Shown piece by piece: positions 2,439 to 62,081 of a stretch of 64,000 nucleotides of DNA (position 1 is the first letter of the stretch; each line of letters starts with the position of its first letter). The notes under the pieces are model-generated. The model searched no databases. It was not told the origin of the DNA and saw only the letters and a program-made list of their open reading frames with translations. A program made the position numbers and the translations under genes. Source of the DNA: Eledone cirrhosa (lineage: Eukaryota); contig OZ024762.1 in assembly GCA_964016885.1 (NCBI GenBank), positions 28,954,001-29,018,000 on the forward strand, read 5' to 3'.

Positions 2439-2459
2439 GTCCTTCCTCTTTTAACCAAC

Positions 2460-12080: not shown

Positions 12081-12171
12081 CTCCACTATGCATGTGCATC
12101 TGTCTGTATAATTGTCTCTTCTTCTTCTTCATCCTCATGTTTTCTGTTGTTGTTGCTTTATTCCATTGCAG

Positions 12172-12309: not shown

Positions 12310-12445
12310 GTTAGTAACCTACCACCAGATAGCGTTGTTTACACAACCATCCCTTCATACAACAACACTGTTTAAATGTTGAGAATCAATGAGTCCTTAA
12401 TTTTTTTTTATATCAAACCACATAAGACTGCCCCTGCTTCTAGGG

Positions 12446-12764
12446 CAGGGGCATGTAGCAGGCGGCCCGTGGGCCACAATCCGCCCTGCCAGACCAGTCA
12501 AAGTGGCCCGCGGTGACCATTTTAAATGTTTACCTTGTAGGCCTATTTACAATTTTTTTCATAACCGTAATACAATTTTCTGTTAGTTGACCTATACTAA
12601 AGGGCTTCACTGATAGGGTTGTGTGTGTTATACTTTCCCAGTTCCATGTTATGGAAAGAAGTTGTGGTGAATCTTCGGAATAGTGCTTAATAAATATTAA
12701 TAGCCCTAATAATTGTTCCAATGTTCAAAAGTGGCCCGCCAATGGAATATGTTGCACACCCCTG
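12446..12764. mobile_element. hAT (Charlie-like) MITE
   Basis: CAGGGG...CCCCTG termini, GGCCCG subterminal motifs, perfect 8-bp TSD TTCTAGGG at 12438-12445 and 12765-12772. Confidence 0.88.
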
Positions 12765-13644
12765 TTCTAGGGTACAAAATTGTTTAGTTTAAAGTGGTTA
12801 TGTATGTATGTATATATGTACATATGTACATATGTCAGGTGACCAGTTGGTGCTACTGGTAACATGTATCCCAGTACAACCTGTCTCATGGTCGGGTCGT
12901 TGGCGACTGAAATGGTAACCCCACCAAGGTTTCTTAGTGAGGAGGGTGACTTTGGACATCCTGCAGGACTAAAAACAAAACCTGTGAAAGGGCAACGGAG
13001 CTTTTAAGTGTCAATGGCCATCCAAAATCACCGGGAGAGATGACCCCTTAGCCTTTGTCAAGGCAGAATTCTAGAAGGAAAACTCTGATATAACACCTAC
13101 AACCCTGATGGTATCCAATGATGTTGACTTGTTCTTCTTTTTGGTAAATATCATCTTAGTTAAGAGAGTGGGACTGGCTTTGTGCAGTGCCTTTGCTCAC
13201 TATAAAAGTTTCACGGCACAGGCATTGCTTTATATCTGGAGATCTCTCTGTACAGGAATTTTCAAGTCGCTGGCTGGACTAAAAAGTCACTTTTGTTCAG
13301 CGCATCGGTAGGGGTTCTCCTACATGGATATAAAGTAGTGGCCGTACTCGAAAACGAGTTGGCAGCCACCATGTACATATGTATGTATGTTAAATGGTAC
13401 AATCAGCACTCATTTAACTGGATAGACAGAAGAAGAAACACAGCACTATCCGAAATTATGCTAAATCATAAGGAGGCTAAAACAGAACCAGGTACAGTAC
13501 TCGTTTTCTTGGCGTATTCTCACAAATGCATTTCCATATTTATGCGAATCCTTTTTCATGTGGCTGTGATCTCTGTACAACGGAAGCTCAACACATTATT
13601 AATAGGAGACAGGAAGTAATTAACAAAGGCTCTGACCACTTTAA

Positions 13645-17290: not shown

Positions 17291-17995
17291 GGTGGTGGTG
17301 ATGATGATGGTGGTGCTGGTGGTCGTGGTGGTGATGGTGATGGTGATGATGATGATGGTGGTGGTGGTGGTGATGGTGGTGGTGGTGGTGGTGGTGGTGT
17401 TGGTGGAGTGTAGGTGGCTGTCGTGGTTATAGTGGGAGTGGAGTGTAGGTGGTGATGGTGGTGGTGGAGTGGAGGTAGTTGTGGTGGTGGTGAGGAGGAG
17501 GATGCTGGTTTTGTTGTTGTTGGTGGTGTGGTGGTGGTGGTGCTGCTGCTGCTGCTGGTGATAGTGGTAGTGGTGGTGGTATTGCATATTGTAGTAGGTA
17601 TTGTTGATGTTGTTTAGCCCCCAGGTAAGCCAACATCCAACAGACCTGCCAAGAGTGGTCTCAGATGGTGCTTGGAACATAACTTAACAAAGGTTGTTAG
17701 TATTGTAAGAACAAGGTCCACATCTGGCAGTTTGGTATCAAAAGGGTTAAGATGGTATTTGGAACATAACTTAACAAAGGTTGTTAGTATTGTAAGAACA
17801 AGGTCCACATCTGGCAGTTTGGTATCAAAACGGTTAAGATGGTATTTGGAACATAACTTAACAAAGGTCCTTAGTATTGTAAGGGTTGATTAATCCTATT
17901 AATCCTTTGTATTCTTACTCAGTTGAACCTCATTTTTTTTACAAATGTTTAGTGAGATAAAAGAGCAGAGGTTTTCTCATGATCTTTCATTGTAG

Positions 17996-18133
17996 AATGT
18001 CCAGAGGGGAAATTTGGACCAAACTGTGGCAACACATGCCCCTGTGCTGACAACAGCAGGTGTAACAAACAGACAGGTGTGTGTTCAAGTGGAGGATGTG
18101 CTGCTGGTTATGAAGGTAGCAACTGTCAGACAG
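17996..18133 (+). CDS. EGF-like exon 5 (138 bp, duplicate of exon 2)
   Basis: Same splice sites and same peptide as 11643..11780; the differences seen are synonymous (GGG/GGA, AAT/AAC). Confidence 0.92.
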
Positions 18134-18524
18134 GTAAGTTGTGTAGTATAGCTTTTTTTGTAACATAATATATTGTGTCCAGACAATAGTAGGTGCTTAT
18201 CCCATTTTTATGGTGTGAAATGACTGAGAGTACAAGACTCCTCCCTGGACAGGACGCCAATCCATCGTGGGGTCAAAACCCCAGCTATTGCTGGTACTCG
18301 TTTTCAGCTGAGTATACTGGAGCAGCGTGAAATGAAGTGTTTTGCTCAAGAATACAACACACAACTCAGCCCAGGAATCGAACCCATGACATTATGATTG
18401 TAAGTCCAACACCCTTACCACTAGGCCACACACCTCCACTATGCATGTGCATCTGTCTGTATAATTGTCTCTTCTTCTTCTTCATCCTCATGTTTTCTGT
18501 TGTTGTTGCTTTATTCCATTGCAG

Positions 18525-18662
18525 TGTGTGCATCTGGTTCATTTGGTCCTAACTGCAAGTATATGTGCCACTGTGCAGACAACAGTAAATGTAATATAGT
18601 GTCAGGGATATGTTCAAGTGGAGGATGTGCAGTTGGTTACAAGGGAAGTAACTGCCAGACAG
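18525..18662 (+). CDS. EGF-like exon 6 (138 bp, duplicate of exon 3)
   Basis: GCAG| ... AG|GTTAGT; as exon 3 but VSGIC instead of VSEIC. Confidence 0.92.
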
Positions 18663-21240
18663 GTTAGTAACCTACCACCAGATAGCGTTGTTTACACAAC
18701 CATCCCTTCATACAACAACACTGTTTAAATGTTGAGAATCAATGAGTCCTTAATTTTTTTTACATCAAACCACATAAGACTGCCCCTGCTTCTAGGGCAG
18801 GGGCATGTAGCAGGCGGCCCGTGGGCCACAATCCGCCCTGCCAGACCAGTCAAAGTGGCCCGCGGTGACCATTTTCAATGTTTACCTTGTAGGCCTATTT
18901 ACAATTTTTTTCATAACCGTAATACAATTTTCTGTTAGTTGACCTATACTAAAGGGCTTCACTGATAGGGTTATGTGTGTTATACTTTCCCAGTTCCATG
19001 TTATGGAAAGAAGTTGTGGTGAATCTTCGGAATAGTGCTTAATAAATAATAATAGCCCTAATAATTGTTCCAATGTTCAAAAGTGGCCCGCCAATGGAAT
19101 ATGTTGCACACCCCTGTTCTAGGGTACAAAATTGTTTAGTTTAAAGTGGTTATGTATGTATGTATATATGTACATATGTACATATGTCAGGTCACCAGTT
19201 GGTGCTACTGGTAACATGTATCCCAGTACAACCTGTCTCATGGTCGGGTCGTTGGCGACTGAAATGGTAACCCCACCAAGGTTTCTTGGTGAGGAGGGTG
19301 ACTTTGGACATCCTGCAGGACTAAAAACAAAACCTGTGAAAGGGCAACGGAGCTTTTAAGTATCAATGGCCATCCAAAATCACCGGGAGAGATGACCCCT
19401 TAGCCTTTCTCAAGGCAGAATTCTAGGAGAAGGAAAACTCTAATATTACACCTGCAACCCTGATGGTATCCAATGATGTTGACTTGTTCTTCCTTTTGGT
19501 AAATATCATCTTAGTTAAGAGAGTGGGACTGGCTTTGTGCAGTGCCTTTGCTCACTATAAAAGCTTCACGGCACAAGCATTGCTTTATATCTGGAGATCT
19601 CTCTGTACAGGAATTTTCAAGTCACTGGCTGGACTAAAAAGTCACTATTGTTCAGCGCATCGGTAGGGGTTCTCCTACATGGATATAAAGTAGTGGCCGT
19701 ACTCGAAAACGAGTTGGCAGCCACCATGTACATATGTATGTATGTTAAATGGTACAATCAGCACTCATTTAACTGGATAGACAGAAGAAGAAGCACAGTG
19801 CTATCTGAAATTATGCTAAATCATAAGGAGGCTAAAACAGAACCAGGTACAGTACTCGTTTTCTTGGCGTATTCTCACAAATGCATTTCCATATTTATGC
19901 GAATCCTTTTTCATGTGGCTGTGATCTCTGTACAACGGAAGCTCAACACATTATTAATAGGAGACAGGAAGTAATTAACAAAGGCTCTGACCACTTTAAC
20001 CTTTAGCATTTAAACCGGCCATATCCGGCCAGAATTCTCTCACCTTTTTCTGTTCAAACCAGCCGTAACTGGCTGCTCATACTTATGTTAAGGTATTGTT
20101 CTCAAAATAAATAATATCAAAATCTTGTTGATTTGATATTATGTGAGATTATTATGTGAGGTAAAGACTTTACAGAGAAAATACATTACAGAGTAATGTA
20201 AATGCTAAAGAGTTAATACTTGTATGCATAAAATATCTAAAACTTTCCTTAGATTAGATAGTTAACACATTCCATGCTAACTTCCACCTAGAGCTGAACA
20301 TAATGACTAAATCTATACATTTAATGCATCCTTACATAGTTACACAAGAATCACCTTCTCTAATAATACACAGCCTGGATATATAGCTATGTAGTTCAAA
20401 CAAATAAACAAAGTTCAAATAAACAAAAAAATAAGTAGATTATTCGAACAAATTCTTTAACATATATGAACGGGGGGTGGGGTGATGACTGACCCCTCTG
20501 GTAATTTGATACCTTAACCTACTTACCATCCCTAGTATGTCAGCAACAATAGCACCTCCTGCTTCATATCTGCCTACTAGAATAGCCATCCAAACCATAT
20601 AACAACTGGACAGGAATGCAAACACAACTCTAACCCCCAATCCTTGGTAGCATATCAAAAACAAAATAAAAGAACACAAATTTGATGCCTGACCGATTTA
20701 ACTCACTCAATATGCAAATTAGGCTGCTCAGCCGTTAATTTTGATAAGGAAAGAATATACTTTCGAACGTTCAACTATCTGGCAGATGGGTAAACGGTGC
20801 TGATGATAGCTAACAAGCTTGAAACTAGTACATCGTTCCTGTGTCAGTGTTGAACAAAAAGGTGACGTGGTTGCCTTAACACCGTATGGCATAAATTCAG
20901 GCTGTTCAGTTTGTTGACAAACGAACAAAGCGGCGTTATAATAAGCGTCCGCTAAACTGATGCGTGCATATATGTATGTGTACCTGTATGTATATGTGTA
21001 TATATATATATATATGCATGCTACTGTACGTCCGTATACATATATGTATGTACGTATACATACATACTTACATTTAAGTAAGTGCCATACTAAGAGTGAG
21101 AAATGAAATTTCGTTTTCATTTTTTTCAACTTATATATATATACATATATATATATATAACTCTTATCTTATTGAGCCCTCTCCAGATTTTGGTGTTTCT
21201 ATTTATTATTAACTACTCTCTCACTTCTCTCTCTCTCTCT

Positions 21241-40667: not shown

Positions 40668-41394
40668 GTAAGTACTGTAGTACAGATTTGTTTCTACCTT
40701 GATATATGAAACAAAACAACAGCAGGTGTAAAAAAACAGACAGAGACAGGTGTGTTGCTGGTTATGATGATATAGATATAATACAGATGATATAGATATA
40801 ATACAGATGATATAGATATAATACAGATGATATAGATATAATACAGATGATATAGATATCATATAGGTTGTAGAGATATAGTATAGATGATATCACTATA
40901 TCATAGATGACAACACTATAATATCATCATCATCTTCGTTTAACGTCCATCTTCCACACCAGCATGGGTTAGACTCATCATCATTTTACGTCCACTTTTC
41001 CCTGGTTGCGAGGGTGGGACGGAAACTGATTCTGGCTTGATTTCTACAGCTGGATGTCCTTCCTAACACCAACCTTATTTTCAGTGAGTACTGGGTGCAT
41101 TCTTGGCACCTCCACGACCAGTTTGCAGTGGAATGATAGGGACCCCAGTCCCTATCATCTCATTTCTACAGCTGAGTAAACTGGAGCAATGTGAAATAAA
41201 GTGTCTTGCTCAAGGAAACAACACATCACCCGGTCTGAGAATTGAACTCACAACCTTTCGATTGCAAGGCCAATGCTCTAACCATTAAGCTATGTGCCAC
41301 CATATATATAGATGATATAATTATGATATTTATTATCTTGTATAGTGTTATATGTTGCTATAATTGTCATTGTTCTCATATTTAATACCCACAG

Positions 41395-41531
41395 TCTGTA
41401 AACAGGTAAATTTGGACCCAACTGTAAATACACATGACACTGTGCTGATAACAGCAGGTGTAACAAAGAGACAGGTGTGTGTTCTAGTGGAGGATGTGCT
41501 GTTGGTTATGAAGGTAGCAACTGTCAGACAG
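41395..41531 (+). pseudogene. Damaged EGF exon copy (137 bp)
   Basis: Splice sites intact, but 1-bp deletion (TGTAAACAGG vs TGTAAAACAGG) and TGT>TGA at a conserved Cys. Confidence 0.85.
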
Positions 41532-41694: not shown

Positions 41695-41849
41695 GGTGTA
41701 AAACAGGTAAATTTGGACCTAACTGTAAACACACATGTCACTGTACTAACAACAGCAGGTGTAACAAACAGCTAGATGTAACACAGAGACAGGTGTGTGT
41801 TCCAGTGAAGTGTGTGGTGATGGTTATGAAGATAGCAACTGTAAGACAG
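41695..41849 (+). pseudogene. Damaged EGF exon copy (155 bp)
   Basis: Acceptor TTTTCAG; CKTGKFGPNCKHTCHCTNNSRCNKQ then a 17-bp internal duplication shifts the frame; donor replaced by GTGTGT. Confidence 0.8.
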
Positions 41850-41899
41850 GTGTGTTACAGTAGAGGGTGTGGTGCTGGTTATGAAGAAGTGGTACATAG

Positions 41900-42632: not shown

Positions 42633-42770
42633 TCTGTAGAAATGGTATATTTGGAGCCAACTGTGGCAACACATGTCACTGTGTTGACAACAGTAAATGT
42701 AACAAACAGTCAGGTATGTGTTCTAGTGGAGGATGTACTGCTGGTTATGAAGGTAGCAACTGTCAGACAG
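42633..42770 (+). CDS. EGF-like exon 8 (138 bp)
   Basis: TTTCCACAG| ... CAG|GTAAGT; CRNGIFGANCGNTCHCVDNSKCNKQSGMCSSGGCTAGYEGSNCQT. Confidence 0.93.
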
Positions 42771-43054
42771 GTAAGTGGTGTAGTATAGCTTTGTTTATAA
42801 CTTAATATAGTGGGTCAAGACAACAGCAGGTGTAACATACAGAGAGGTGTAACAAACAGCGAGATGTAACACAGAGACAGGTGTGTGTTCCAATGAAGTG
42901 TGTTGTGTAGTATAGCTTAGTCTGTAGCTTAATATATTGAAACAAAACAACATCAGGTGTAACATAGAGACAGGTGTATGTTCTAGTGGAGGATGTGCTG
43001 CTGGTTATGAAGCTGGCAACTGTCAGAGAGTTAAGTAGTATAGTAATTAAACTT

Positions 43055-44175
43055 TCTATTACCATATTTCTAATGAAAGACACTGTATATGTCATTAACC
43101 CTTTCATTACCATATTTCTAATGAAAGACACTATATATGTCATTAACCCTTTCATTACCATATATCTAATGAAAGACACTGTCTATGTCATTAACCCTTT
43201 CATTACCATATTTCTAATGAAAGACACTACCTATGTCATTAACCCTTTCATTACCATATTTCTAATGAAAGACACTACCTATGTCATTAACCCTTTCATT
43301 ACCATATATCTAATGAAAGACACTGTATATGTCATTAACCCTTTCATTACAATATTTCTAATGAAAGACACTGTCTATGTCATTAACCCTTTCATTACCA
43401 TATATCTAATGAAAGACACTGTATATGTCATTAACCCTTTCATTACCATATTTCTAGTGAAAGACACTGTATATGGCATTAACCCTTTCATTACCATATT
43501 TCTAGTGAAAGACACTGTCTATGTCATTAACCCTTTCATTACCATATTTCTAATGAAGGACACTATATATGTCATTAACCCTTTCATTACCATATTTCTA
43601 ATGAAGGACACTGTCTATGTCATTAACCCTTTCATTACCATATATCTAATGAAAGACACTGTATATGTCATTCACCCTTTCATTACCATATATCTAATGA
43701 AAGATACTGTCTATGTCATTAACCCTTTCATTACCATATTTCTAATGAAAGACACTCTATGTCATTAACCCTTTCATTACCATATTTCTAATGAAAGACA
43801 CTGTCTATGTCATTAACCCTTTCATTACCATATTTCTAATGAAGGACACTGTATATGTCATTAACCCTTTCATTACCATATTTCTAATGAAGGACACTGT
43901 CTATGTCATTAACCCTTTCATTACCATATATCTAATGAAAGACACTGTATATGTCATTCACCCTTTCATTACCATATATCTAATGAAAGATACTGTCTAT
44001 GTCATTAACCCTTTCATTACCATATTTCTAATGAAAGACACTCTATGTCATTAAGCCTTTCATTACCATATTTCTAATGAAAGACACTGCCTGTGTCATT
44101 AACCCTTTCATTACCATATATCTAATGAAAGACACTGTCTATGTCATTAACCCTTTCATTACCATATTTCTAATA
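43055..44175. repeat. 48-bp minisatellite, ~23 copies
   Basis: GTCATTAACCCTTTCATTACCATATTTCTAATGAAAGACACTGTCTAT. Confidence 0.95.
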
Positions 44176-44541
44176 AGGTAAGTAATGTAGCATAACTTTG
44201 TTGTAGCATAATATATTGAAACAAAACAACAGCAGGTGTAACTTAGAGACAGGTGTGTGTTCCTATTGAAAGTGTGACATCGCAACTCATTTCTATAGCT
44301 GAGTATCTTGAGCAACATGAAATAAAGTGAGTTGTACAAGAACACAAAACACAGCAAGATTCAGGCATCGAACTCACAACTTTATGATTGTAAGCCTGAC
44401 GCTCTTACCACTAATCCTTGCGCCTTCAATAGATATAATATAGAGGAATAGATATAGTATAGCTATAGATATAATATAGGTTGTAGGGATAGAGTACAGA
44501 TGATATAGATATAAAATAGTTGATATCACTATAGTATAGAT

Positions 44542-46450
44542 TAGGGGTCATTAAATCCCTGGCCCATAGGCCACATCTGGCCCACGGGCCACATCTGACC
44601 TGCCGACAGGTTTCAATCTTAGACTAAGCAATCTCCTGAAAAAGTGTTCTGAATTATTTGGGATTAAAATACCAACTAGAGAACACGTCTAACCTCAAGA
44701 CTCACTTAACTGAACGTAATGTTTTAATGTGACAGTAAGAAACAATCAAACTCAGAGAGATAGAATAGTCAGACATCGAGGTCAAAGAGACTGTGTGTGT
44801 GTATTCGTGTATATATGTACATACATAGTATCTGTATGGCAGGGATGTGAAATGACCCAGACTTACCTAAAAATGTCAGTATGTCTGACATAGTTATTTC
44901 ATTTCATCCTCAAAATTGTTCATTTTAGTTAACTGTCTGGTAGTAAAACATCTGTAAGGGACTGTATTTGATAATAATCAATGTTTATTTATTTTTCTAT
45001 GTTAAAAGTGTTCAGTATTATTAGAAGTAAATATGTTCAATGAACAAATGGCAACCCTGGTTTAAATACACTACCAGGTGTCATGGCTTTGTCAGAGTTT
45101 ATTAAAATTGTCAGAGTATTTTATTATATTACTGCATTCATTTTTACATATGTTCTCATTACTTATTTGATATCATGGCCTGCCGACGAGACACTACATA
45201 GCAATGTGGCTTGCTGACAAGACACTACATAGCTATGTGACCTGCCGATGAGACACTGCATAGCTATGTGGCCTGCTGGTGAGACACTCCATAGCTATGT
45301 GGCCTGCTGACAAGACACTACATAGCTATGTGGCCTGCTGAGGAGACACTACATAGCAATGTGGCCTGCTGGTGAGACACTGCATAGCTATGTGTCCTGC
45401 TGACGAGACACTACATAGCTATGTGACCTGCTGGTGAGACACTGCATAGCTATGTGTCCTGCTGACAAGACACTGCATAGCTATGTGGCCTGCTGACGAG
45501 ACACTACATAGCTATGTGGCCTGCTGGTGAGACACTCTATAGCTATGTGGCCTGCTGACGAGACACTACATAGCTATGTGGCCTGCTGGTGAGACACTAC
45601 ATAGCTATGTGGCCTGCTGACGAGACACTACATAGCTATGTGGCCTGCTGGTGAGACACTGCATAGCTATGTGACCTGCTGACGAGACACTGCATAGCAA
45701 TGTGGCCTGCTGGTGAGACACTCCATAGCTATGTGGCCTGCTGGTGAGACACTGCATAGCTATGTGACCTGCTGACAAGACACTCCATAGCTATGTGGCC
45801 TGCTGACAAGACACTGCATAGCTATGTGGCCTGCTGCTGAAACACTGCATCGCTATGTGGCCTGCTGACAAGACACTGTATAGCAATGTGGCCTGCTGGT
45901 GAGACACTCCATAGCTATGTAGCCTGCTGAAAAGACACTACATAGCTACGTGGCCTGCTGGTGAGACACTCCATAGCTATGTGGCCTGCTGACAAGACAC
46001 TGTATAGCAATGTGGCCTGCTGACAAGACACTCCATAGCTATGTGGCCTGCTGACAAGACACTGTATAGCTATGTGGCCTGCTGGTGAGACACTCCATAG
46101 CTATGTGGCCTGCTGACAAGACACTGTATAGCAATGTGGCCTGCTGACAAGACACTCCATAGCAATGTGGCCTGCTGACAAGACACTACATAGCTATGTG
46201 GCCTGCTGACAAGACACTGTATAGCAATGTGGCCTGCTGACAAGACACTCCATAGCAATGTGGCCTGCTGACAAGACACTACATAGCTATGTGGCCTGCT
46301 TGACAAGACACTGTATAGCAATGTGAGCAACTGACAAGACACTTCCCAACAATGTGGCCTGCCAGTGAGACACTGCATAGCAATGTGACCTGCCTGTGTG
46401 AGACTCCATAGCAATGTGGCCCGCACACCCCAAAAGGATGCCGACTTCTG
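44542..46450. mobile_element. Non-autonomous hAT element with internal 31-bp minisatellite (~45178-46420, ~40 copies)
   Basis: TAGGGGTC ... GACTTCTG termini, GGCCC(A/G)C subterminal motifs, 8-bp TSD GTATAGAT at 44534-44541 and 46451-46458; unit TGGCCTGCTGACAAGACACTACATAGCTATG. Confidence 0.85.
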
Positions 46451-46558
46451 GTATAGATGACAACACTATAATATATATGATATAATATTGTGATATTTAT
46501 TATCTTGTATAGTGTAAATGTTGTTATAATTGTCATTGTTCTCATATTTTATTTCCAG

Positions 46559-46696
46559 TCTGTAAATCAGGTAAATTTGGAGCCAACTGTGGCAACACAT
46601 GTCACTGTGCTGACAACAGTAAATGTAACAAACAGACAGGTGTGTGTTCTAGTGGAGGATGTGCTGCTGGTTATGAAGGTAGCAACTGTCAGAGAG
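46559..46696 (+). pseudogene. EGF exon copy with intact frame but mutated donor
   Basis: ATTTCCAG acceptor; CKSGKFGANCGNTCHCADNSKCNKQTGVCSSGGCAAGYEGSNCQR; ends GAG|TTAAAT instead of CAG|GTAAGT. Confidence 0.7.
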
Positions 46697-46719
46697 TTAA
46701 ATAGTATAGTAATTAAACT

Positions 46720-47462
46720 TTCTATTACCATATATCTAATGAAAGACACTGTATATGTCATTAACCCTTTCATTACCATATTTCCAATGAAAGACACTGT
46801 CTATGTCATTAACCCTTTCATTACCATATTTCTAATGAAAGACACTGTCTATGTCATTAACCCTTTCATTACAATATTTCTAATGAAAGACACTACCTAT
46901 ATCATTAACCCTTTCATTACCATATTTCTAGTGAAAGACACTGTCTATGTCATTAACCCCTTCATTACCATATTTCTAATGAAAGACACTGTCTATGTCA
47001 TTAACCCTTTCATTACAATACTTCTAATGAAAGACACTACCTATATCATTAACCCTTTCATTACCATATTTCTAGTGAAAGACACTGTCTATGTCATTAA
47101 CCCTTTCATTACCATATTTCTACTGAAAGACACTGTCTATGTCATTAACCCTTTCATTACCATATTTCTAATGAAGGACACTGTCTATGTCATTAACCCT
47201 TTCATTACCATATTTCTAATGAAAGACACTGTATATGTCATTAACCCTTTAATTACCATATTGCCAATGAAAGACACTGTCTATGTCATTAACCCCTTCA
47301 TTATTATATTTCTAATTAAAGACACTACCTATGTTATTAACCCCTTCATTACTATATTTCTAATGAAAGACACTGTCTATGTCATTAACCCTTTCATTAC
47401 CATATTTCTAATGAAAGACACTGTCTATGTCATTAACCCTTTCATTACCATATTTCTAATAA
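46720..47462. repeat. 48-bp minisatellite, ~15 copies
   Basis: Same unit as 43055-44175. Confidence 0.95.
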
Positions 47463-47827
47463 GGTAAGTGATGTAGCATAACTTTGTTGTAGCATAATAT
47501 ATTGAAACAAATAAACAGCAGGTGTAACTTAGAGACAGGTGTGTGTTCCCATTGAAAGTGTGACATCACAACTCATTTCTATAGCTGAGTATCTTGAGCA
47601 ACATGAAATAAAGTGACTTGTTCAAGAACACAAAACACAGCAAGATTCAGGCATCGAACTCACAACTTTATGATTGTAAGCCTGACGCTCTTACCACTAA
47701 TCCTTGCGCCTTCAATAGATATAATATAGAGGAATAGATATAGTACAGCTATAGATATAATATAGGTTGTAGGGATATAGTACAGATGATATAGATATAA
47801 AATAGTTGATATCACTATAGTATAGAT

Positions 47828-50800
47828 TAGGGGTCATTAAATCCCTGGCCCGTGGGAACATCTAGCCCGCGGGCCACATCTGGCCTGCCGACAGGTTTCA
47901 ATCTTAGACTAAGCGATCCCTGAAAAAGTGTTCTGAATTATTTGGGATTAAAATACCAACTAGAGAACACGTCTAACCTCAAGACTCACTTAACTGAACG
48001 TAATGTTTTAATGTGACAGTAAGAAACAATCAAACTCAGAGAGATAGAATAGTCAGACATCGAGGTCAAAGGGACTGTGTGTGTGTATTCATGTATATAT
48101 GTACATACATAGTATCTGTATGGCAGTGATGTGAAATGACCCAGACTTACCTAAAAAAGTCAGTATGTCTGACATAGTTATTTCATTTCATCCTCAAAAT
48201 TGTTCATTTTAGTTAACTGTCTGGTAGCAAAATATCTGTAAGGGTTTGTATTTGATAATAATCAATGTTTATTTATTTTTCTATGTTAAAAGTGTTCAGT
48301 ATTATTAGAAGTAAATATGTTCAATGAACAAATGGCAACCCTGGTTTAAATACACTGTCAGGTGTCATGGCTTTGTCAGAGTTTATTAAAAATGTCAGAG
48401 TATTTTATTATATTACTGCATTCATTTTTACATATGTTCTCATTACTTATTTGATATCATGGCCTGCCGACGAGACACTACATAGTTATGTGACTTGCTG
48501 ACGAGACACTACATAGCTATGTGGCCTGCTGACAAGACACTACATAGCTATGTGGCCTGCTGACAAAACACTACATAGCTATGTGGCTTGCTGACAAGAC
48601 ACTACATAGCTATGTGGCCTGCTGACGAGACACTGCATAGCTATGTGGCCTGCTGACAAGACACTACATAGCTATGTGGCCTGCTGGTGAGACACTCCAT
48701 AGCTATGTGGCCTGCTGGTGAGACACTACATAGCTATGTGGCCTGCTGGTGAGACACTGCATAGCTATGTGGCCTGCTGGTGAGACACTGCATAGCTATG
48801 TGGCCTGCTGGTGAGACAATGCATAGCTATGTGGCCTGCTGACAAGACACTGCATAGCAATGTGGCCTGCTGACAAGACACTGCATAGCAATGTGGCCTG
48901 CTGGTGAGACACTGCATAGCTATGTGGCCTGCTGGTGAGACACTCCATAGCAATGTGGCCTGTTGGTGAGACACTCCATAGCAATGTGGCCTGCTGACAA
49001 GACACTACATAGCTATGTGGCCTGCTGGTGAGACACTCCATAGCTATGTGATCTGCTGGTGAGACACTCCATAGCTATGTGGCCTACTGGTGAGACACTA
49101 CATAGCAATGTGGCCTGCTGGTGAGACACTACATAGCAATGTGGCCTGCTGGTGAGACACTCCATAGCAATGTGGCCTGCTGACAAGACACTACATAGCT
49201 ATGTGGCCTGCTGGTGAGACACTCCATAGCTATATGATCTGGTGGTGAGACACTCCATAGCTATGTGGCCTGCTGGTGAGACACTGCATAGCTATGTGGC
49301 CTGCTGACAAGACACTGCATAGCTATGTGGCCTGCTGGTGAGACACTGCATAGCTATGTGGCCTGCTGGTGAGACACTCCATAGCTATGTGGCCTGCTGA
49401 CAAGACACTGCATAGCAATGTGGCCTGCTGACAAGACACTACATAGCTATGTGGCCTGCTGGTGAGAAACTGCATAGCAATATGGCCTGCTGACAAGACA
49501 CTACATAGCAATGTGGCCTGCTGGTGAGACACTACATAGCAATGCGGCCTGCTGGTGAGACACTGTATAGCTATGTGGCCTGCTGACAAGACACTACATA
49601 GCTATGTGGCCTGCTGGTGAGACACTCCATAGCTATGTGGCCTGCTGACAAGACACTGCATAGCAATGTGGCCTGCTGGTGAGACACTGCATAGCAATGT
49701 GGCCTGCTGGTGAGACACTGCATAGCAATGTGGCCTGCTGACAAGACACTACATAGCTATGTGGACTGCTGGTGAGAAACTGCATAGCAATATGGCCTGC
49801 TGACAAGACACTCTATAGCAATGTGGCCTGCTGACAAGACACTGTATAGCTATGTGGCCTGCTGACAAGACACTACATAGCTATGTGGACTGCTGGTGAG
49901 AAACTGCATAGCAATATGGCCTGCTGACAAGACACTCTATAGCAATGTGGCCTGCTGACAAGACACTGTATAGCTATGTGGCCTGCTGACAAGACACTGC
50001 ATAGCTATGTGGCCTGCTGGTGAGACACTCCATAGCTATGTGGCCTGCTGACAAGACATTCCATAGCTATGTGGCCTGCTGGTGAGACACTCCATAGCAA
50101 TATGGCCTGCTGACAAGACACTGTATAGCTATGTGGCCTGCTGACAAGACACTGTATAGCTATGTGGCCTGCTGGTGAGACACTCCATAGCTATGTGGCC
50201 TGCTGACAGGACACTGTATAGCTATGTGGCCTGCTGACAAGACACTGTATAGCTATGTGGCCTGCTGGTGAGACACTCCATAGCTATGTGGCCTGCTGAC
50301 AAGACACTGTATTGCAATGTGAGCAACTGACAAGACACTTCGTAACAATGTGGCCTGCTGGTGAGACACTGCATAGCTATGTGGCCTGCTCGTGAGACAC
50401 TGCATAGCTATGTGGCCTGCTGGTGAGACACTGCATAGCTATGTGGCCTGCCGACAAGACACTCCATAGCTATGTGGCCTGCTGACGAGACACTGCATAG
50501 CTATGTGGCCTGCTGGTGAGACACTACATAGCAATATGGCCTGCTGGTGAGACACTGCATAGCTATGTGGCCTGCTGACAAGACACTGCATAGCTATGTG
50601 GCCTGCTGGTGAGACACTGCATAGCTATGTGGCCTGCTGGTGAGACACTGCATAGCTATGTGGCCTGCTGGTGAGACACTGCATAGCTATGTGGCCTGCT
50701 GGTGAGACACTCCATAGCTATGTGGCCTGCTGACAAGACACTGCATAGCAATGTGGCCTGCTGACAAGACACTACATAGCTATGTGGCCTGCTGGTGAGA

Positions 50801-51531
50801 AACTGCATAGCAATATGGCCTGCTGACAAGACACTACATAGCAATGTGGCCTGCTGGTGAGACACTACATAGCAATGTGGCCTGCTGGTGAGACACTGCA
50901 TAGCAATGTGGCCTGCTGGTGAGACACTCCATAGCTATGTGGCCTGCTGACAAGACACTGCATAGCAATATGGCCTGCTGACAAGACACTGTATAGCTAT
51001 GTGGCCTGCTGGTGAGACACTACATAGCTATGTGGCCTGCTGGTGAGACACTGCATAGCAATGTGGCCTGCTGGTGAGACACTCCATAGCTATGTGGCCT
51101 GCTGACAAGACACTCTATAGCAATGTGGCCTGCTGACAAGACACTGCATAGCAATGTGGCCTGCTGACAAGACACTGCATAGCTATGTGGCCTGCTGGCG
51201 AGACACTCCATAGCTATGTGGCCTGCTGACAAGACACTCCATAGCTATGTGGCCTGCTGGTGAGACACTCCATAGCAATATGGCCTGCTGACAAGACACT
51301 GTATAGCTATGTGGCCTGCTGACAAGACACTGTATAGCAATGTGGCCTGCTGGTGAGACACTCCATAGCTATGTGGCCTGCTGACAAGACACTGTATAAC
51401 AATGTGAGCAACTGACAAGACACTTCGTAACAACGTGGCCTGCCAGTGAGACACTGCATAGAAATGTGGCCTGCCTGTGTGACACTCCATAGCAATGTGG
51501 CCCGCACACCCCAAAAGGATGCCGACCTCTG
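47828..51531. mobile_element. Second copy of the hAT element; 31-bp array expanded (~48460-51500, ~98 copies)
   Basis: Same termini and same TSD GTATAGAT (47820-47827, 51532-51539). Confidence 0.85.
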
Positions 51532-51639
51532 GTATAGATGACAACACTATAATATAGATGATATAATATTGTGATATTTATTATCTTGTATAGTGTAAAT
51601 GTTGTTATAATTGTCATTGTTCTCATATTTTATTTCCAG

Positions 51640-51777
51640 TCTGTAAATCAGGTAAATTTGGAGCCAACTGTGGCAACACATGTCACTGTGCTGACAACAG
51701 TAAATGTAACAAACAGACAGGTGTGTGTTCTAGTGGAGGATGTGCTGCTGGTTATGAAGGTAGCAACTGTCAGACAG
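51640..51777 (+). CDS. EGF-like exon 9 (138 bp)
   Basis: ATTTCCAG| ... CAG|GTATAT; CKSGKFGANCGNTCHCADNSKCNKQTGVCSSGGCAAGYEGSNCQT. Confidence 0.88.
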
Positions 51778-51792
51778 GTATATGGTGTAGTA

Positions 51793-53475
51793 ATTAACCC
51801 TTTCATTACCATATTTCTAATGAAAGACACTGTCTATGTCATTAACCCTTTCATTACCACATTTCTAATAAAAGACACTGTCTATGTCATTAACCCTTTC
51901 ATTACCACATTTCTAATGAAAGACACTGTCTATGTCATTAACCCTTTCATTACCATATTTCTAATGAAAGACACTGTCTATGTCAGAGGAGAGGAACCTT
52001 TTTACCATTAGAGGCCACATTTAAATTAGGCAGTAATAAAGGAGGCCGCATAAGTTGATATACCTATAAATGCGACTTTTGTGAAATTATTATAGTTTTT
52101 GTATAGTTTTATAGTCATTTATTATTTAACATAAAAAGTTACAACATAAAATATTTTTGTATTCACATAATTATAAAGAAATACAATAGAAAAATAATAA
52201 TATTAAGTTAAAAAAACTAATATAGCAAAAATACGTAAAATAATTTTAAAATCCGATGGAAAATTCAAGTTAGTCGGATATTTGCATTTGTTTCTTGCTT
52301 GAAAGTAATTGAATATTTGGATTAAGGTTTAATGACATAGACTATGTCATTAAACCTTTCATTACCAAGTTTCTACTTAAAGACACTGTCTCTGTCATTA
52401 ACCCTTTCATTACCATATCTCTACTTAAAGACACTGTCTATATCATTTAATCTTTCTTTACCATATTTCTACTTAAAGACACTGTCTATGTCATTAATCC
52501 TTTCATTACCATATTTCTACTTAAAGACACTGTCTATGTCATTAAACCTTTCATTACCATATTTCTACTTAAAGACACTGTCTATGTCATTAAACCTTTC
52601 ATTACCATATCTCTACTTAAAGACACTGTCTATGTCATTAACCCTTTCATTACCATATTTCTACTTAAAGACACTGTCTATGTCATTAAACCTTTCATTA
52701 CCATATTTCTACTTGAAGACACTGTCTATGTCATTAAACCTTTCATTACCAAGTTCCTACTTAAAGACACTGTCTATGTCATTAAACCTTTCATTACATA
52801 TTTCTACTTAAAGACACTGTCTATGTGATTAAACCTTTCATTACCATATTTCTACTTAAAGACACTGTCTATGTCATTAAACCTTTCATTACCATATTTC
52901 TACTTGAAGACACTGTCTATGTCATTAAACCTTTCATTACCAAGTTCCTACTTAAAGACACTGTCTATGTCATTAAACCTTTCATTACATATTTCTACTT
53001 AAAGACACTGTCTATGTCATTAAACCTTTCATTACATATTTCTACTTAAAGACACTGTCTATGTCATTAACCCTTTCATTACATATCTCTACTTAAAGAC
53101 ACTGTCTATGTCATTAAACCTTTCATTACCATATTTCTACTTAAAGACACTGTCTATGTCATTAAACCTTTCATTACCATATTTCTACTTAAAGACACTG
53201 TCTATGTCATTAAACCTTTCATTACCAAGTTCCTACTTAAAGACACTGTCTATGTCATTAAACCTTTCATTACATATTTCTACTTAAAGACACTGTCTAT
53301 GTAATTAAACCTTTCATTACATATTTCTACTTAAAGACACTGTCTATGTCATTAACATTTTCATTACATATCTCTACTTAAAGACACTGTCTATGTTATT
53401 AACCCTTTCATTACATATCTCTACTTAAAGACACTGTCTATATCATTAACCCTTTCATTACCATATTTCTACTTA
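51793..53475. repeat. 47/48-bp minisatellite in two blocks split by a ~350-bp AT-rich insertion (~51985-52340)
   Basis: About 4 original units, then ~24 variant units GTCATTAAACCTTTCATTACCATATTTCTACTTAAAGACACTGTCTAT. Confidence 0.92.
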
Positions 53476-53550: not shown

Positions 53551-53688
53551 CCTGTCACATTGGTAAATTTGGAGCTAACTGTAAACACACATGCCACTGT
53601 GCTGATAATAACAGGTGTAACAAACAGACAGGTATGTGTTCTAGTGGAGGATGTACTGCTGGTTATGAAGGTAGCAACTGTCAGACAG
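53551..53688 (+). CDS. EGF-like exon 10 (138 bp)
   Basis: ATATTACAG| ... CAG|GTAAGT; CHIGKFGANCKHTCHCADNNRCNKQTGMCSSGGCTAGYEGSNCQT. Confidence 0.92.
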
Positions 53689-54379
53689 GTAAGTGGTGTA
53701 GTATAGCTTTGTTTCTAACATGATATATTGAGTCAAGATGACAGTAGGTGTAACACACAGCTAGGTGTAACACAGAGACAGGTGTGTGTTTTAGTGGAAA
53801 GTGTAGTGCTGGTTATGAAGGTAACACCTGTGAGACAGGTAGATTTAAACTGTTTTGGAGCTACAATCATCATCATCATCATTTTACGTCTGCTTTTCCT
53901 TGCTTACAAGGGTGGGACGGAAACTGATTCTGGCTTGATTTCTACAGCTGGATGCCCTTCCTAACACCAGCCTCATTTACAGTGAGTATTGGGTGTTTTT
54001 TGCCGTGGCACCTCCAGGACCACTTTGCAGTGGAATGATATTGACCCCAGTCCCTATCATCTCATTTCTACAGCTGAGTAAACTGGAGCAATGTGAAATA
54101 AAGTGTCTTGCTCAAGGAAACAACACATCACCCGGTCTGAGAATTGAACTCACAACCTTTCGATTGCAAGGCCAATGCTCTAACTTCTAAGCTATGTGCT
54201 TACAATATAAAGGGGATATTATAGCCTCATGAATATATAGTATAACATTGGTATGGAGTGTAGAGAATCGGCAAGTATATAGACATAATATCGATGTTAC
54301 GGAAATCATATAGATTGTATAGATATAGTATGGATTATATATAGTTTAGGTCATACCACTGGAGTATAAAATAATATAA

Positions 54380-55095
54380 TAATGAAATTATTGTGTACAG
54401 TGCTCAGGTGCACTACAACTCATCAAAGGTGCATGTATAGTACATAGAATAATGTTTAAATGTCAGGAAAAGGAACAGTGTATGAGTCATGGAATACATG
54501 TGTGCGTGTGTATGGAAGGGGGGACATCAGGTGCAGTGTTGACGAATCTCAGGAAGCATAGAGGTTTTAAAGGATGCAGTGTCTCGACAGCTAACAACTG
54601 ATGCAGGTAGTTTATTCCATGGAGGTTTTAAAGGATGCAGTGTCTCGACAGCTAACAACTGATGCAGGTAGTTTATTCCATGGAGGTTGTAAAGGATGTA
54701 GTGTCTCGACAGCTAACAACTGATGCAAGTAGTTTGTTCCATGGAGGTTGTAAAGGATGTAGTGTCTCGACAGCTAACAACTGATCCAGGTAGTTTGTTC
54801 CATGGAGGTTTTAAAGGATGCAGTGTCTCGACAACTAACAACTGATGCAGGTAGTTTGTTCCATGGAGGTTTTAAAGGATGTAGTGTCTCGACAGCTAAC
54901 AACTGATGCAGGCAGTTTGTTCCATGGAGGTTTTAAAGGATGCAGTGTCTCGACAGCTAACAACTGATGCAGGTAGTTTGTTCCATGCTTCAGCAACTCG
55001 GAGCTTGAAAAAATGATTCCGAAAGTCATGGGAGCTGTGCTGTTTTCTGACTTTGTAGGCATATCCATGGGTGTTAGAAACATGGAAATTAAGAT
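54380..55095 (-). mobile_element. CR1-like LINE 3' fragment with a 61-bp tandem amplification (~54561-54987, ~7 copies)
   Basis: Minus peptide NTHGYAYKVRKQHSSHDFRNHFFKLRVAEAWNKLPASVVSCRDTASFK matches the CR1-group ORF2 C-terminus; the 3'UTR recurs at ~61390-61580 (+) ending in (ATT)n. Confidence 0.8.
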
Positions 55096-55351
55096 GATAC
55101 AAATATAGTTCAGATGATATAGATATAGTATAGATGACAACGCTATAATATAGATGATAGAATTGTGGTAGCTATCCCTTTCATCCCAACAGGGTTGATA
55201 AAATGAAGTACCAGTCACACACTGGGGTCGATTTAATTGATTTTCTCCTCCCCTAAAATTGCTGGCCTTGTGCCTAAATCAGAAAGCATTATCTTGTATA
55301 GTGTTATATGTTGTTGTTATTGTCATTGTTCTCATATTTTTATTTCCACAG

Positions 55352-55489
55352 TCTGTAGAAATGGAAAATTTGGAGCCAACTGTGGCAACACATGTTACTG
55401 TGCTGACAACAGTAAATGTAACAAACAGACAGGTGTGTGTTCTAGAGGAGGATGTACTGCTGGTTATGAAGGTAGAAACTGTCAGCCAG
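55352..55489 (+). CDS. EGF-like exon 11 (138 bp)
   Basis: TTTCCACAG| ... CAG|GTAAGC; CRNGKFGANCGNTCYCADNSKCNKQTGVCSRGGCTAGYEGRNCQP. Confidence 0.92.
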
Positions 55490-55574
55490 GTAAGCTTTGT
55501 TTGCTACTTAATATATTTAGTCAAGATGATAGTAGGTGTAAGACAGAGACAGGTGTGTGTTCCAGTGGAAGGTG

Positions 55575-58500
55575 TGTTCCTGGTTATAAGGTAGCAGCTG
55601 TCAGACAGGTGTGTTACAGTAGATGGTGTGGTCCTGGTTATAAAGTAGCACCTGTCAGACAGGTGTGTTACAGTAGATGGTGTGGTCCTGGTTATAAGGT
55701 AGCACCTGTCAGACAGGTGTGTTACAGTAGATGGTGTGGTCCTGGTTATAAGGTAGCAGCTGTCAGACAGGTGTGTTACAGTAGATGGTGTGGTCCTGGT
55801 TATAAAGTAGCACCTGTCAGACAGGTGTGTTACAGTAGATGGTGTGGTCCTGGTTATAAGGTAGCACCTGTCAGACAGGTGTGTTACAGTAGATGGTGTG
55901 GTCCTGGTTATAAGGTAGCAGCTGTCAGACAGGTGTGTTACAGTAGATGGTGTGGTCCTGGTTATAAAGTAGCACCTGTCAGACAGGTGTGTTACAGTAG
56001 ATGGTGTGGTCCTGGTTATAAGGTAGCACCTGTCAGACAGGTGTGTTACAGTAGATGGTGTGGTCCTGGTTATAAGGTAGCACCTGTCAGACAGGTGTGT
56101 TACAGTAGATGGTGTGGTCCTGGTTATAAGGTAGCAGCTGTCAGACAGGTGTGTTACAGTAGATGGTGTGGTCCTGGTTATAAAGTAGCACCTGTCAGAC
56201 AGGTGTGTTACAGTAGATGGTGTGGTCCTGGTTATAAGGTAGCAGCTGTCAGACAGGTGTGTTACAGTAGATGGTGTGGTCCTGGTTATAAAGTAGCACC
56301 TGTCAGACAGGTGTGTTACAGTAGATGGTGTGGTCCTGGTTATAAGGTAGCACCTGTCAGACAGGTGTGTTACAGTAGATGGTGTGGTCCTGGTTATAAG
56401 GTAGCACCTGTCAGACAGGTGTGTTACAGTAGATGGTGTGGTCCTGGTTATAAGGTATCATCTATCAGACAGGTGTGTTACAGTAGATGGTGTGGTCCTG
56501 GTTATAAGGTAGCACCTGTCAGACAGGTGTGTTACAGTAGATGGTGAAGTCCTGGTTATAAGGTAGCACCTGTCAGACAGGTGTGTTACAGTAGATGGTG
56601 TGGTCCTGGTTATAAGGTAGCACCTGTCAGACAGGTGTGTTACAGTAGATGGTGTGATCCTGGTTATAAGGTATCATCTATCAGACAGGTGTGTTACAGT
56701 AGATGGTGTGGTCCTGGTTATAAGGTATCATCTATCAGACAGGTGTGTTACAGTAGATGGTGTGGTCCTGGTTATAAGGTAGCAGCTGTCAGACAGGTGT
56801 GTTACAGTAGATGGTGTGGTCCTGGTTATAAAGTAGCACCTGTCAGACAGGTGTGTTACAGTAGATGGTGAAGTCCTGGTTATAAGGTAGCACCTGTCAG
56901 ACAGGTGTGTTACAGTAGATGGTGTGGTCCTGGTTATAAGGTAGCACCTGTCAGACAGGTGTGTTACAGTAGATGGTGTGGTCCTGGTTATAAGGTAGCA
57001 CCTGTCAGACACGTGTGTTACAGTAGATGGTGTGATCCTGGTTATAAGGTATCATCTATCAGACAGGTGTGTTACAGTAGATGGTGTGGTCCTGGTTATA
57101 AGGTAGCACCTGTCAGACAGGTGTGTTACAGTAGATGGTGAAGTTCTGGTTATAAGGTAGCACCTGTCAGACAGGTGTGTTACAGTAGATGGTGTGGTCC
57201 TGGTTATAAGGTAGCAGCTGTCAGACAGGTGTGTTACAGTAGATGGTGTGGTCCTGGTTATAAAGTAGCACCTGTCAGACAGGTGTGTTACAGTAGATGG
57301 TGAAGTCCTGGTTATAAGGTAGCACCTGTCAGACAGGTGTGTTACAGTAGATGGTGTGGTCCTGGTTATAATGTAGCACCTGTCAGACAGGTGTGTTACA
57401 GTAGATGGTGTGGTCCTGGTTATATGGTAGCAGCTGTCAGACAGGTGTGTTACAGTAGATGGTGTGATCCTGGTTATAAGGTAGCACCTGTCAGACAGGT
57501 GTGTTACAGTAGATGGTGTGGTCCTGGTTATAAGGTATCATCTATCAGACAGGTGTGTTACAGTAGATGGTGTGGTCCTGGTTATAATGTAGCACCTGTC
57601 AGACAGGTGTGTTACAGTAGATGGTGTGGTCCTGGTTATATGGTAGCAGCTGTCAGACAGGTGTGTTACAGTAGATGGTGTGGTCCTGGTTATAAGGTAG
57701 CACCTGTCAGACAGGTGTGTTACAGTAGATGGTGTGGTCCTGGTTATAAGGTAGCACCTGTCAGACAGTTGTGTTACAGTAGATGGTGTGGTCCTGGTTA
57801 TAAGGTAGCACCTGTCAGACAGGTGTGTTACAGTAGATGGTGTGGTGCTGGTTATAAAGTAGCACCTGTCAGACAGGTGTGTTACAGTAGATGGTGAAGT
57901 CCTGGTTATAAGGTAGCACCTGTCAGACAGGTGTGTTACAGTAGCTGCTGTGGTCCTGGTTATAATGTAGCACCTGTCAGGCAGGTGTGTTACAGTAGAT
58001 GGTGTGGTCCTGGTTATATGGTAGCAGCTGTCAGACAGGTGTGTTACAGTAGATGGTGTGATCCTGGTTATAAGGTAGCACCTGTCAGACAGGTGTGTTA
58101 CAGTAGATGGTCTGGTCCTGGTTATAAGGTATCATCTATCAGACAGGTGTGTTACAGTAGATGGTGTGGTCCTGGTTATAATGTAGCACCTGTCAGACAG
58201 GTGTGTTACAGTAGATGGTGTGGTCCTGGTTATATGGTAGCAGCTGTCAGACAGGTGTGTTACAGTAGATGGTGTGGTCCTGGTTATAAGGTAGCACCTG
58301 TCAGACAGGTGTGTTACAGTAGATGGTGTGGTCCTGGTTATAAGGTAGCACCTGTCAGACAGTTGTGTTACAGTAGATGGTGTGGTCCTGGTTATAAGGT
58401 AGCAGCTGTCAGACAGGTGTGTTACAGTAGATGGTGTGGTCCTGGTTATAAGGTAGCACCTGTCAGACACGTGTGTTACACTAGATGGTGTGATCCTGGT

Positions 58501-60580
58501 TATAAGGTATCATCTATCAGACAGGTGTGTTACAGTAGATGGTGTGGTCCTGGTTATAAGGTAGCACCTGTCAGACAGGTGTGTTACAGTAGATGGTGAA
58601 GTCCTGGTTATAAGGTAGCACCTGTCAGACAGGTGTGTTACAGTAGATGGTGTGGTCCTGGTTATAAGGTAGCAGCTGTCAGACAGGTGTGTTACAGTAG
58701 ATGGTGTGGTCCTGGTTATAAAGTAGCACCTGTCAGACAGGTGTGTTACAGTAGATGGTGAAGTCCTGGTTATAAGTTAGCACCTGTCAGACAGGTGTGT
58801 TACAGTAGATGGTGTGGTCCTGGTTATAATGTAGCACCTGTCAGACAGGTGTGTTACAGTAGATGGTGTGGTCCTGGTTATATGGTAGCAGCTGTCAGAC
58901 AGGTGTGTTACAGTAGATGGTGTGATCCTGGTTATAAGGTAGCACCTGTCAGACAGGTGTGTTACAGTAGATGGTGTTGTCCTGGTTATAAGGTATCATC
59001 TATCAGACAGGTGTGTTACAGTAGATGGTGTGGTCCTGGTTATAATGTAGCACCTGTCAGACAGGTGTGTTACAGTAGATGGTGTGGTCCTGGTTATATG
59101 GTAGCAGCTGTCAGACAGGTGTGTTACAGTAGATGGTGTGGTCCTGGTTATAAGGTAGCACCTGTCAGACAGGTGTGTTACAGTAGATGGTGTGGTCCTG
59201 GTTATAAGGTAGCACCTGTCAGACAGTTGTGTCACAGTAGATGGTGTGGTCCTGGTTATAAGGTAGCACCTGTCAGACAGGTGTGTTACAGTAGATGGTG
59301 TGGTGCTGGTCATAAAGTAGCACCTGTCAGACAGGTGTGTTACAGTAGATGGTGAAGTCCTGGTTATAAGGTAGCACCTGTCAGACAGGTGTGTTACAGT
59401 AGATGCTGTGGTCCTGGTTATAATGTAGCACCTGTCAGGCAGGTGTGTTACAGTAGATGGTGTGGTCCTGGTTATATGGTAGCAGCTGTCAGACAGGTGT
59501 GTTACAGTAGATGGTGTGATCCTGGTTATAAGGTAGCACCTGTCAGACAGGTGTGTTACAGTAGATGGTCTGGTCCTGGTTATAAGGTATCATCTATCAG
59601 ACAGGTGTGTTACAGTAGATGGTGTGGTCCTGGTTATAATGTAGCACCTGTCAGACAGGTGTGTTACAGTAGATGGTGTGGTCCTGGTTATATGGTAGCA
59701 GCTGTCAGACAGGTGTGTTACAGTAGATGGTGTGGTCCTGGTTATAAGGTAGCACCTGTCAGACAGGTGTGTTACAGTAGATGGTGTGGTCCTGGTTATA
59801 AGGTAGCACCTGTCAGACAGTTGTGTTACAGTAGATGGTGTGGTCCTGGTTATAAGGTAGCAGCTGTCAGACAGGTGTGTTACAGTAGATGGTGTGGTCC
59901 TGGTTATATGGTAGTACCTGTCAGACAGTTGTGTTACAGTAGATGGTGTGGTCCTGGTTATAAGGTAGCAGCTGTCAGACAGGTGTGTTACAGTAGATGG
60001 TGTGGTCCTGGTTATAAGGTATCATCTTTCAGACAGGTGTGTTACAGTAGATGGTGTGGTCCTGGTTATAAGGTAGCAGCTGTCAGACAGGTGTGTTACA
60101 GTAGATGGTGTGGTCCTGGTTATTAGGTAGCACCTGTCAGACAGGTGTGTTACAGTAGATGGTGTGGTCCTGGTTATAAGGTAGCACATGTCAGACAGGT
60201 GTCTTACAGTAGATGCTGTGGTCCTGGTTATAAGGTATCATCTATCAGACAGGTGTGTTACAGTAGAAGGTGTGGTCCTGGTTATAAGGTAGCAGCTGTC
60301 AGACAGGTGTGTTACAGTAGATGGTGTGATCCTGGTTATAAGGTAGCACCTGTCAGACAGGTGTGTTACAGTAGATGGTGTTGTCCTGGTTATAAGGTAT
60401 CATCTATCAGACAAGTGTGTTACAGTAGATAGTGTAGTCCTGGTTATAAGGTAGCACCTGTCAGACAGGTGTGTTACAGTAGATGGTGTGGTCCTGGTTA
60501 TAAGGTATCATCTGTCAGACAGGTGTGTTACAGTAGATGGTGTGGTCCTGGTTATAAGGTAGCACCTGTCAGACACGTGT
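55575..60580 (+). repeat. 54-bp minisatellite (~93 copies) derived from the 3' half of the EGF exon
   Basis: Unit ACAGGTGTGTTACAGTAGATGGTGTGGTCCTGGTTATAAGGTAGCACCTGTCAG aligns with exon ACAGGTGTGTGTTCTAGTGGAGGATGTGCTGCTGGTTATGAAGGTAGCAACTGTCAG. Confidence 0.95.
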
Positions 60581-60809
60581 GTGCTCTTTTGTAGTTCTAT
60601 TTCTTTAGAAAATCTACCAGACAAATGGATGAATGTCCTCTTCAGTCATGATGAAATGTATCCAGTAACATCTGAGAGGTCAGTAGCTCCGATTAAGTTC
60701 TGAGTCGGTCTCTGTTGACACATCCCACTCTTGGTTACAGGGGAAGTGAATGTTAAATGTTCATCATGAGGAAGATGTGAGTAGCAGGGGCAGTAGAGTT
60801 ACAGATTAA

Positions 60810-61943: not shown

Positions 61944-62081
61944 GATGTAAGAGAGGAAAATTTGGACCAAACTGTCGAAACATGTGTCATTGTGCTGACA
62001 AGAGTAAATGTAAGCCACAGACTGGTAGCTGCTCTAATGGAGGATGTGCTCCTGGATATGAAGGTGGCAACTGTCAGACAG
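61944..62081 (+). CDS. EGF-like exon 12 (138 bp)
   Basis: GATTTGTAG| ... CAG|GTAAGT; CKRGKFGPNCRNMCHCADKSKCKPQTGSCSNGGCAPGYEGGNCQT. Confidence 0.92.

Follow-up and report, generated by a model that had tools for sequence, protein, structure and literature searches.

The window analysed here, a stretch of 64,000 nucleotides from Eledone cirrhosa, carries on its forward strand a series of EGF-like exons belonging to a single host gene. In gene order, an EGF exon is followed by a two-exon F5/8-type domain and then by approximately 20 laminin-type EGF exons. These host exons are phase 1-1 modules with eight cysteines, about 20 of which lie between window position 10428 and a point 11.7 kb past the window end. 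The domain order is shared with molluscan F5/8-type-C plus multi-EGF (MEGF6/10/11-like) proteins, and the named relatives are MEGF-like proteins of Mya arenaria and Liolophura and EGF proteins of amphioxus. By contrast with the F5/8-type-C multi-EGF proteins, the 264 kb examined revealed neither a transmembrane nor a phosphatase exon (tblastn with 150 proteins, a search with 16 proteins at relaxed settings, and a hydrophobicity scan), which is weak evidence of absence, and the resemblance is a likeness that does not fix the subfamily. A homologue search with a single exon returned nothing. As a separate observation, and a greater oddity than the array itself, the lectin-EGF gene unit as a whole (110-170 kb) has undergone recent multiplication; its copies occupy at least five contigs and differ in their number of exons.

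One of the EGF-like exons, which has a weak match to Pfam EGF_STAB1-2 (E 8e-4, below the cut-off), is followed in its downstream intron by a long tandem array. The main features of this region are:

55352..55489, + strand: EGF-like exon of 138 nt, phase 1-1, eight cysteines, canonical AG acceptor and GT donor
55354..56547, + strand: read-through frame of 397 codons plus TGA (56545), judged incidental
55490..55524, + strand: authentic donor and intron start
55553..55608, + strand: lead unit of the array, 56 bp, carrying the 1-nt deletion described below and lacking the 2-nt one
55609..60576, + strand: 92 tandem 54-bp units, ten of them with a stop in the Cys frame
56959..59874, + strand: 27-unit block in two copies of 1458 bp each, with 7 mismatches; 20 of the 27 unit pairs are identical
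61944..62081, + strand: following EGF exon (phase 1-1), to which the upstream exon is expected to be spliced

The initial annotation had placed a tandem minisatellite of about 5 kb at 55490..60580, and both TRF (period of 54 bp, 93.1 copies and 94% matches at 55555-60582) and splitting into units recover it. The array at 55553-60576 is made of the single lead unit and 92 gap-free 54-mers, which fall into 31 unit types, and it begins 63 nt past the authentic donor. Both the lead unit and the last unit are distinct from the units of the body. A 27-unit higher-order repeat had also been described, and at a lag of 27 units 22 of 65 unit pairs are indeed identical, a value reached by none of 5000 shuffles; for instance, the units at 57337 and 58795 are identical, and those at 57931 and 59389 are 1 nt apart. 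The lag-27 signal therefore stands, but what produces it is a single block duplication, with copies at 56959-58416 and 58417-59874. In higher-order-repeat satellites of the alpha-satellite type, a multi-unit block is repeated many times and is common to several arrays. Here one block occurs twice, and in the ten other arrays of more than 60 units the best lag is never 27 (lags of 11 to 109 were seen), so this class was rejected.

The sequence of the unit points to the exons of its own gene. When aligned with the last 57 nt of the exons at 51640 and 17996, the 54-mer gives 46/54 identities with one gap of 2 and one of 1 (score 31), far above the scores of 2000 shuffles per target (mean -12, maximum 2-6), as expected from the proposal that the unit is a 57-bp exon stretch with deletions of 1 and 2 nt. 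The adjacent exon at 55352 gives 42/54 identities. This exon also contains a 9-bp direct repeat, one copy of which lies inside the exon and the other across the donor, 57 nt apart, and the 54-mer consists of exon sequence only, plus a GT regenerated through this direct repeat. It had been further proposed that the net loss of three nucleotides keeps the unit in the Cys frame of the exon. That is so for 11 of the 18 codons, but the other seven are frame-shifted and the last cysteine of the exon is lost. Taken at the level of sequence, these comparisons support the descent of the 54-bp unit from the EGF exons of the host gene.

Between the exon and the array lies another kind of copy. Using a probe of about 134 bp, formed by 86 nt of exon end and 48 nt of intron start, matches were found in approximately three tandem copies at 42685-43045, once after the exon at 53551 and once at the start of the array (55525-55610). 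These copies, which we call echoes, and their relatives in the window are:

41695..41886, + strand: disrupted exon joined to an echo with two copies (at 41793 and 41850, the second with the 2-nt deletion)
42685..43045, + strand: exon 3' end and intron start in about three repeats, of the mirage type, with a period of about 134 bp
44176..44262 and 47462..47548, + strand: further echo pieces
53741..53841, + strand: echo with one 57-bp copy (53782), following the exon at 53551-53688
55525..55552, + strand: echo head, a decayed exon copy from about exon position 54 that lacks the acceptor (probe 2-88 matches 55525-55610, 83%, E 2e-19)
60577..60604, + strand: echo tail, a weak and decayed likeness to the donor and intron start that ends the array (probe 23-114 matches 60516-60604, 75%, mostly over the last unit)

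The intermediates that had been claimed at 55527-55610 and 41850-41886 were thus found, at 55525-55610 and 41774-41886. Besides the 2-nt deletion, the copy at 41850 has five substitutions in common with the 54-mer that are absent from the aligned exons, according to an alignment read by eye. Three 57-bp copies are present in other paralogues (L053-L055), and the 57-nt spacing of the direct repeat in the exon equals the unit length, 57 bp, of the echoes with two and three copies. In the paralogue on contig C22, the same intron holds a pair of units of 56 and 54 bp, although this two-unit array may be the product of a collapse rather than a relic. As the unit shares 44-45 of its 54 positions with the full-length echoes, and so is no closer to them than to the exon consensus type (46/54), the case for a route through the echoes rests on their position and on the derived sites shared in a 38-nt fragment.

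Matches to the unit and to the exon flank, at 95-100% identity, are present on contigs C16, C20, C22, C23 and C27. Two boundary patterns gave 23 and 22 places, the union of which is 25 loci, and all 25 were compared. The exact 22-nt junction between units occurs 1452 times in the genome (242 forward and 1210 reverse), and the 25 loci of the gene family account for all 242 and 1210; diverged copies that lack the 22-mer would be missed by this exact match. The unit thus exists elsewhere in the genome, within its own gene family. Since every exact match sits in these loci and none outside them, a dispersed satellite family was rejected as its origin. In 22 of the 25 copies the array lies in the same intron next to an intact exon, and in the remaining three the exon or its donor has been lost by deletion or fusion. 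For instance, in the copy at 14.94 Mb of C27, the 5' part of the exon runs directly into the lead unit with loss of the donor, and the short direct repeat described above marks this deletion as well. Across the paralogues, the arrays range from 2 to 273 units (the latter being 14.7 kb), while their 800-bp 3' flanks are 0-13 nt apart, that is, 0-1.6%.

We consider it very probable that the array is an intronic minisatellite whose unit, matching the last 57 bp of the host EGF exons, was probably formed through two non-coding steps and probably does not serve a coding function. Because an echo flanks both ends of the array and similar echoes follow other exons, the array is best read as an expansion inside an intronic copy of an exon edge that lacks an acceptor. 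Consequently, the exon-to-satellite birth proposed in the initial annotation holds as regards exon ancestry, but the unit would come from this non-coding copy, not straight from the coding exon. In the first step, about 86 nt of exon end and about 48 nt of intron start, the two parts that make up the echoes, would have been duplicated into the intron without an acceptor. In the second, slippage or unequal crossover between the 9-bp repeats would have doubled the 57-bp piece inside the echo, and the change from 57 to 54 bp would reflect the loss of 2 nt from a GT run and of 1 nt near a short purine run. In a third step, amplification of the entire gene to at least 25 copies would have spread the echo with it. 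Unequal exchange could then have altered each array independently, giving the range of lengths described above and leaving private block duplications behind. Splicing of the intron is predicted to proceed as usual, joining the exon at its own donor to the EGF exon that follows. The open Cys frame would, in turn, be a remnant of the open frame of the exon after the net loss of 3 nt.

If this reading is correct, one gene family gives an exceptionally full record of how a minisatellite is born: it contains the exon of origin with its direct repeats, stages of one, two and three copies, the two deletions and 25 replicate arrays. As the arrays span 2-273 units and their flanks are at most 1.6% apart, rates of expansion and collapse are measurable from them without population data.

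One alternative, which we regard as very unlikely, is that the many paralogues and their differing array lengths are partly artefacts of assembly, caused by over-expanded or misplaced contigs. Assembly errors are possible because some of the copies are nearly identical: six have identical 800-bp 3' flanks, seven arrays of 33 units are only 0-5 nt apart, and C16 is a short contig of 0.81 Mb. Most copies, however, can be told apart by their flank, array length, variants and exon content. Additionally, three sequencing runs from one sample were inspected at 55000-55720, and we take them to be DNA, since they cover intron and exon alike and contain no exon-exon joints. In these DNA-like runs, a contig with the upstream flank of the exon has a depth of 640-787, compared with 8-11 at the locus of an RNA polymerase subunit, and this, although depth cannot be equated with copy number, suggests a higher number of copies, not a lower one. 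These results hint that the amplification of the gene is real and perhaps larger than assembled.

A second alternative is that the array, although non-coding, alters splicing, either through competition of its many donor-like sites with the true donor or through a length that favours exon skipping, so that the number of EGF modules would be tuned or the transcript sent to decay. The donor-like sites that had been noted in each unit are present, 151 of them downstream of the true donor, and the exons, being symmetric (phase 1-1), can be skipped; in the C27 copy at 14.94 Mb, moreover, the deletion of the true donor leaves the unit sites as the only ones. However, both donor-like motifs were inherited from within the exons, where they are already present, and the true donor is close to consensus. 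The function suggested for these sites as cryptic donors also fits poorly with their frame, as 150 of the 151 would shift it, the sole exception being located immediately ahead of the lead unit, and no acceptor with a pyrimidine tract is present in the array. Furthermore, amphioxus mirages, a comparable type of repeat, are reported not to disturb splicing (PMC3087553). We consider an effect on splicing very improbable.

The least probable of the alternatives, and in our view a highly implausible one, is that the array is partly coding, with intron retention in some gene copies extending a truncated and possibly secreted lectin-EGF protein by some 18 repeats rich in Cys, Gly and Tyr. The observation behind it was accurate. 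The frame is open from the exon through the donor, the lead unit and 17 full units to the stop at 56545. The unit length is a multiple of three and, as internal length changes amount to only three of the 11 long arrays' worth, most units are in phase. In fact, the frame is kept in four of the 22 exon-bearing copies, from two lineages, with 397 aa in the window and 437 aa in each of three copies on C20. By contrast, it is lost within two units in the other 18, the closest exon-bearing relatives of the window copy among them: in 11 the second unit has lost 1 bp, in one it contains a TGA, and in six a 17-bp insertion precedes the lead unit. In frame-broken copies the first stop was found at unit 16, 16, 21 or 31, and since these copies thus also have 15-30 stop-free units at their 5' end, a stop-free lead needs no selection.

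The variation among units likewise looks neutral. Across 1993 of the 2040 units (those at frameshift edges were dropped), 229 (11%) contain a stop, and the 93 distinct variants divide into 68 missense, 16 silent and 9 nonsense changes, against 115, 35 and 12 possible (Fisher p 0.13). By codon position these variants are distributed 32/30/31, while 12 exons give 32/29/52, with an excess at the third position. On the antisense strand a stretch of 301 aa is open, about as long as that of the sense strand (330 aa), and chance open frames are common: some open plus-strand frame appeared in 73% of 20000 trials with a shuffled 54-mer and is present in all five of the window's other long arrays with periods of 24, 48 or 51. 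No credible Pfam family was found for the tail; the matches of the repeat translation to IN_DBD_C (integrase) and anaphylatoxin were discarded, as their scores are sums over repeats and no single stretch passes. With 18 of 22 frames broken, stops in 11% of the units and no third-position excess, a coding tandem repeat (VNTR protein) was rejected. The proposal that the Cys frame was kept for a repeat-tail isoform is accordingly not borne out, and the repeat, as far as its sequence can tell, gives no sign of coding for protein.

It is conceivable, at a very low probability, that in the four read-through copies or in the fused C27 copy the repeat has come back into the transcript, producing truncated lectin-EGF isoforms with a Cys-rich tail or exon skipping that depends on array length. 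If this were true, a full cycle from exon to satellite and back to exon would be diversifying a recognition protein.

The array seems to give rise neither to a protein nor to an element of a new kind, and it may be regarded as a well-resolved variant of a type of repeat that is already known. No description of it or of the gene family was found in the literature searched, which left out most subscription papers. The "mirage" minisatellites of amphioxus (Adh3 and the globins BflGb6 and BflGb9) are described in PMC3087553 as exon-intron boundaries copied in tandem, in arrays of variable length that are reported to leave splicing undisturbed. As in these, the tandem copies derive from an exon edge and lie in the neighbouring intron, carry splice-like signals, are unstable in length and have boundary units that escape homogenisation. 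The array sits beside the copied boundary in 22 of 25 copies, its length varies across the paralogues and its boundary units are divergent. The 134-bp echoes, which span the exon-intron boundary, are of the same donor-side type as BflGb9. Unlike a mirage unit, the 54-mer is an exon-only sub-piece of the echo, lies 63 nt from the donor and was fixed by two deletions; additionally, the arrays reach 273 units, compared with the 3-6 given for BflGb6 in PMC3087553, and are replicated across 25 paralogues. Because it contains exon sequence plus only the GT of the direct repeat, the 54-mer is, strictly, a mirage derivative.

Other minisatellites have been proposed to originate from short direct repeats of 5-10 bp, as in the Haber and Louis model and in microhomology-mediated tandem duplication (PMC6947457 and PMC13167724), and the duplication mechanism proposed above follows this model. 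The present case resembles these models in that a single-copy segment, flanked by 9-bp repeats at a spacing equal to the unit length, would have been duplicated and then expanded under neutral evolution. It differs from their cases in that the template is a copy of the end of a protein-coding exon and that stages with one, two, three and many copies are found in one family. Finally, vertebrate megasatellites have been attributed to exon-intron duplication in bioRxiv 10.1101/2021.07.19.452908, and the host EGF exons, as a young tandem series of exon plus intron, are comparable to them, whereas the repeats of megasatellites stay coding and the 54-mer is intronic and bears no sign of coding.

The host gene, which joins an F5/8-type domain to a series of EGF exons, is present in at least 25 copies that are 95-100% identical, lie on several contigs of the assembly and vary in exon number. 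They are distributed as follows:

C20:3.56-5.23 Mb, 14 copies
C27:13.57-15.50 Mb, six copies
C16:0.50-0.76 Mb, three copies
C22:1.71 Mb, one copy
C23, within the window, one copy

The C20 copies form a repeating unit with a spacing of about 70-210 kb, and related exons are also found at C19:35.4 Mb. Read depth hints that the genome holds more copies than have been assembled.

The C22 copy (L041-L042, C22:1.703-1.723 Mb) has diverged, and is a candidate for the least decayed of the family: it has 18 open EGF exons within 20 kb and numerous short introns, and its array intron carries only a pair of units, of 56 and 54 bp. In the C27 copy at 14.94 Mb (L018), the lead unit is joined to the 5′ part of the exon at the 9-bp repeat, the true donor is deleted and the frame stops after 57 codons. 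A separate echo, consisting of three copies of the 57-bp piece, lies downstream of a different EGF exon in three other stretches (L053:2572-2740, L054 and L055); this exon is missing from the window's gene copy.

Three exons of the window are broken:

41394-41531
41695-41886, fused to an echo
46559-46696

Of the remaining two, one has a frameshift and a stop and the other lacks a GT donor; all three are phase 1-1 modules that can be skipped. The stretch comprising window positions ~1-6200 and flanking loci L030 and L035-L036 has LINE-type retrotransposon frames between the two F5/8 exons and, about 112 kb downstream, a second gene start; the F5/8 exon of this second start holds a stop, and no EGF series follows it in the region covered.

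Tandem repeats make up 44% of the window, and in the surrounding 264 kb their share is 45%. Further intronic arrays in the window have periods of 24, 28, 31, 48, 51, 61, 63-65 and 73. Minisatellites have been copied along with exon-plus-intron modules in two recent internal duplications within the window:

11310-12835 and 17663-19187
43052-46700 and 46718-51985
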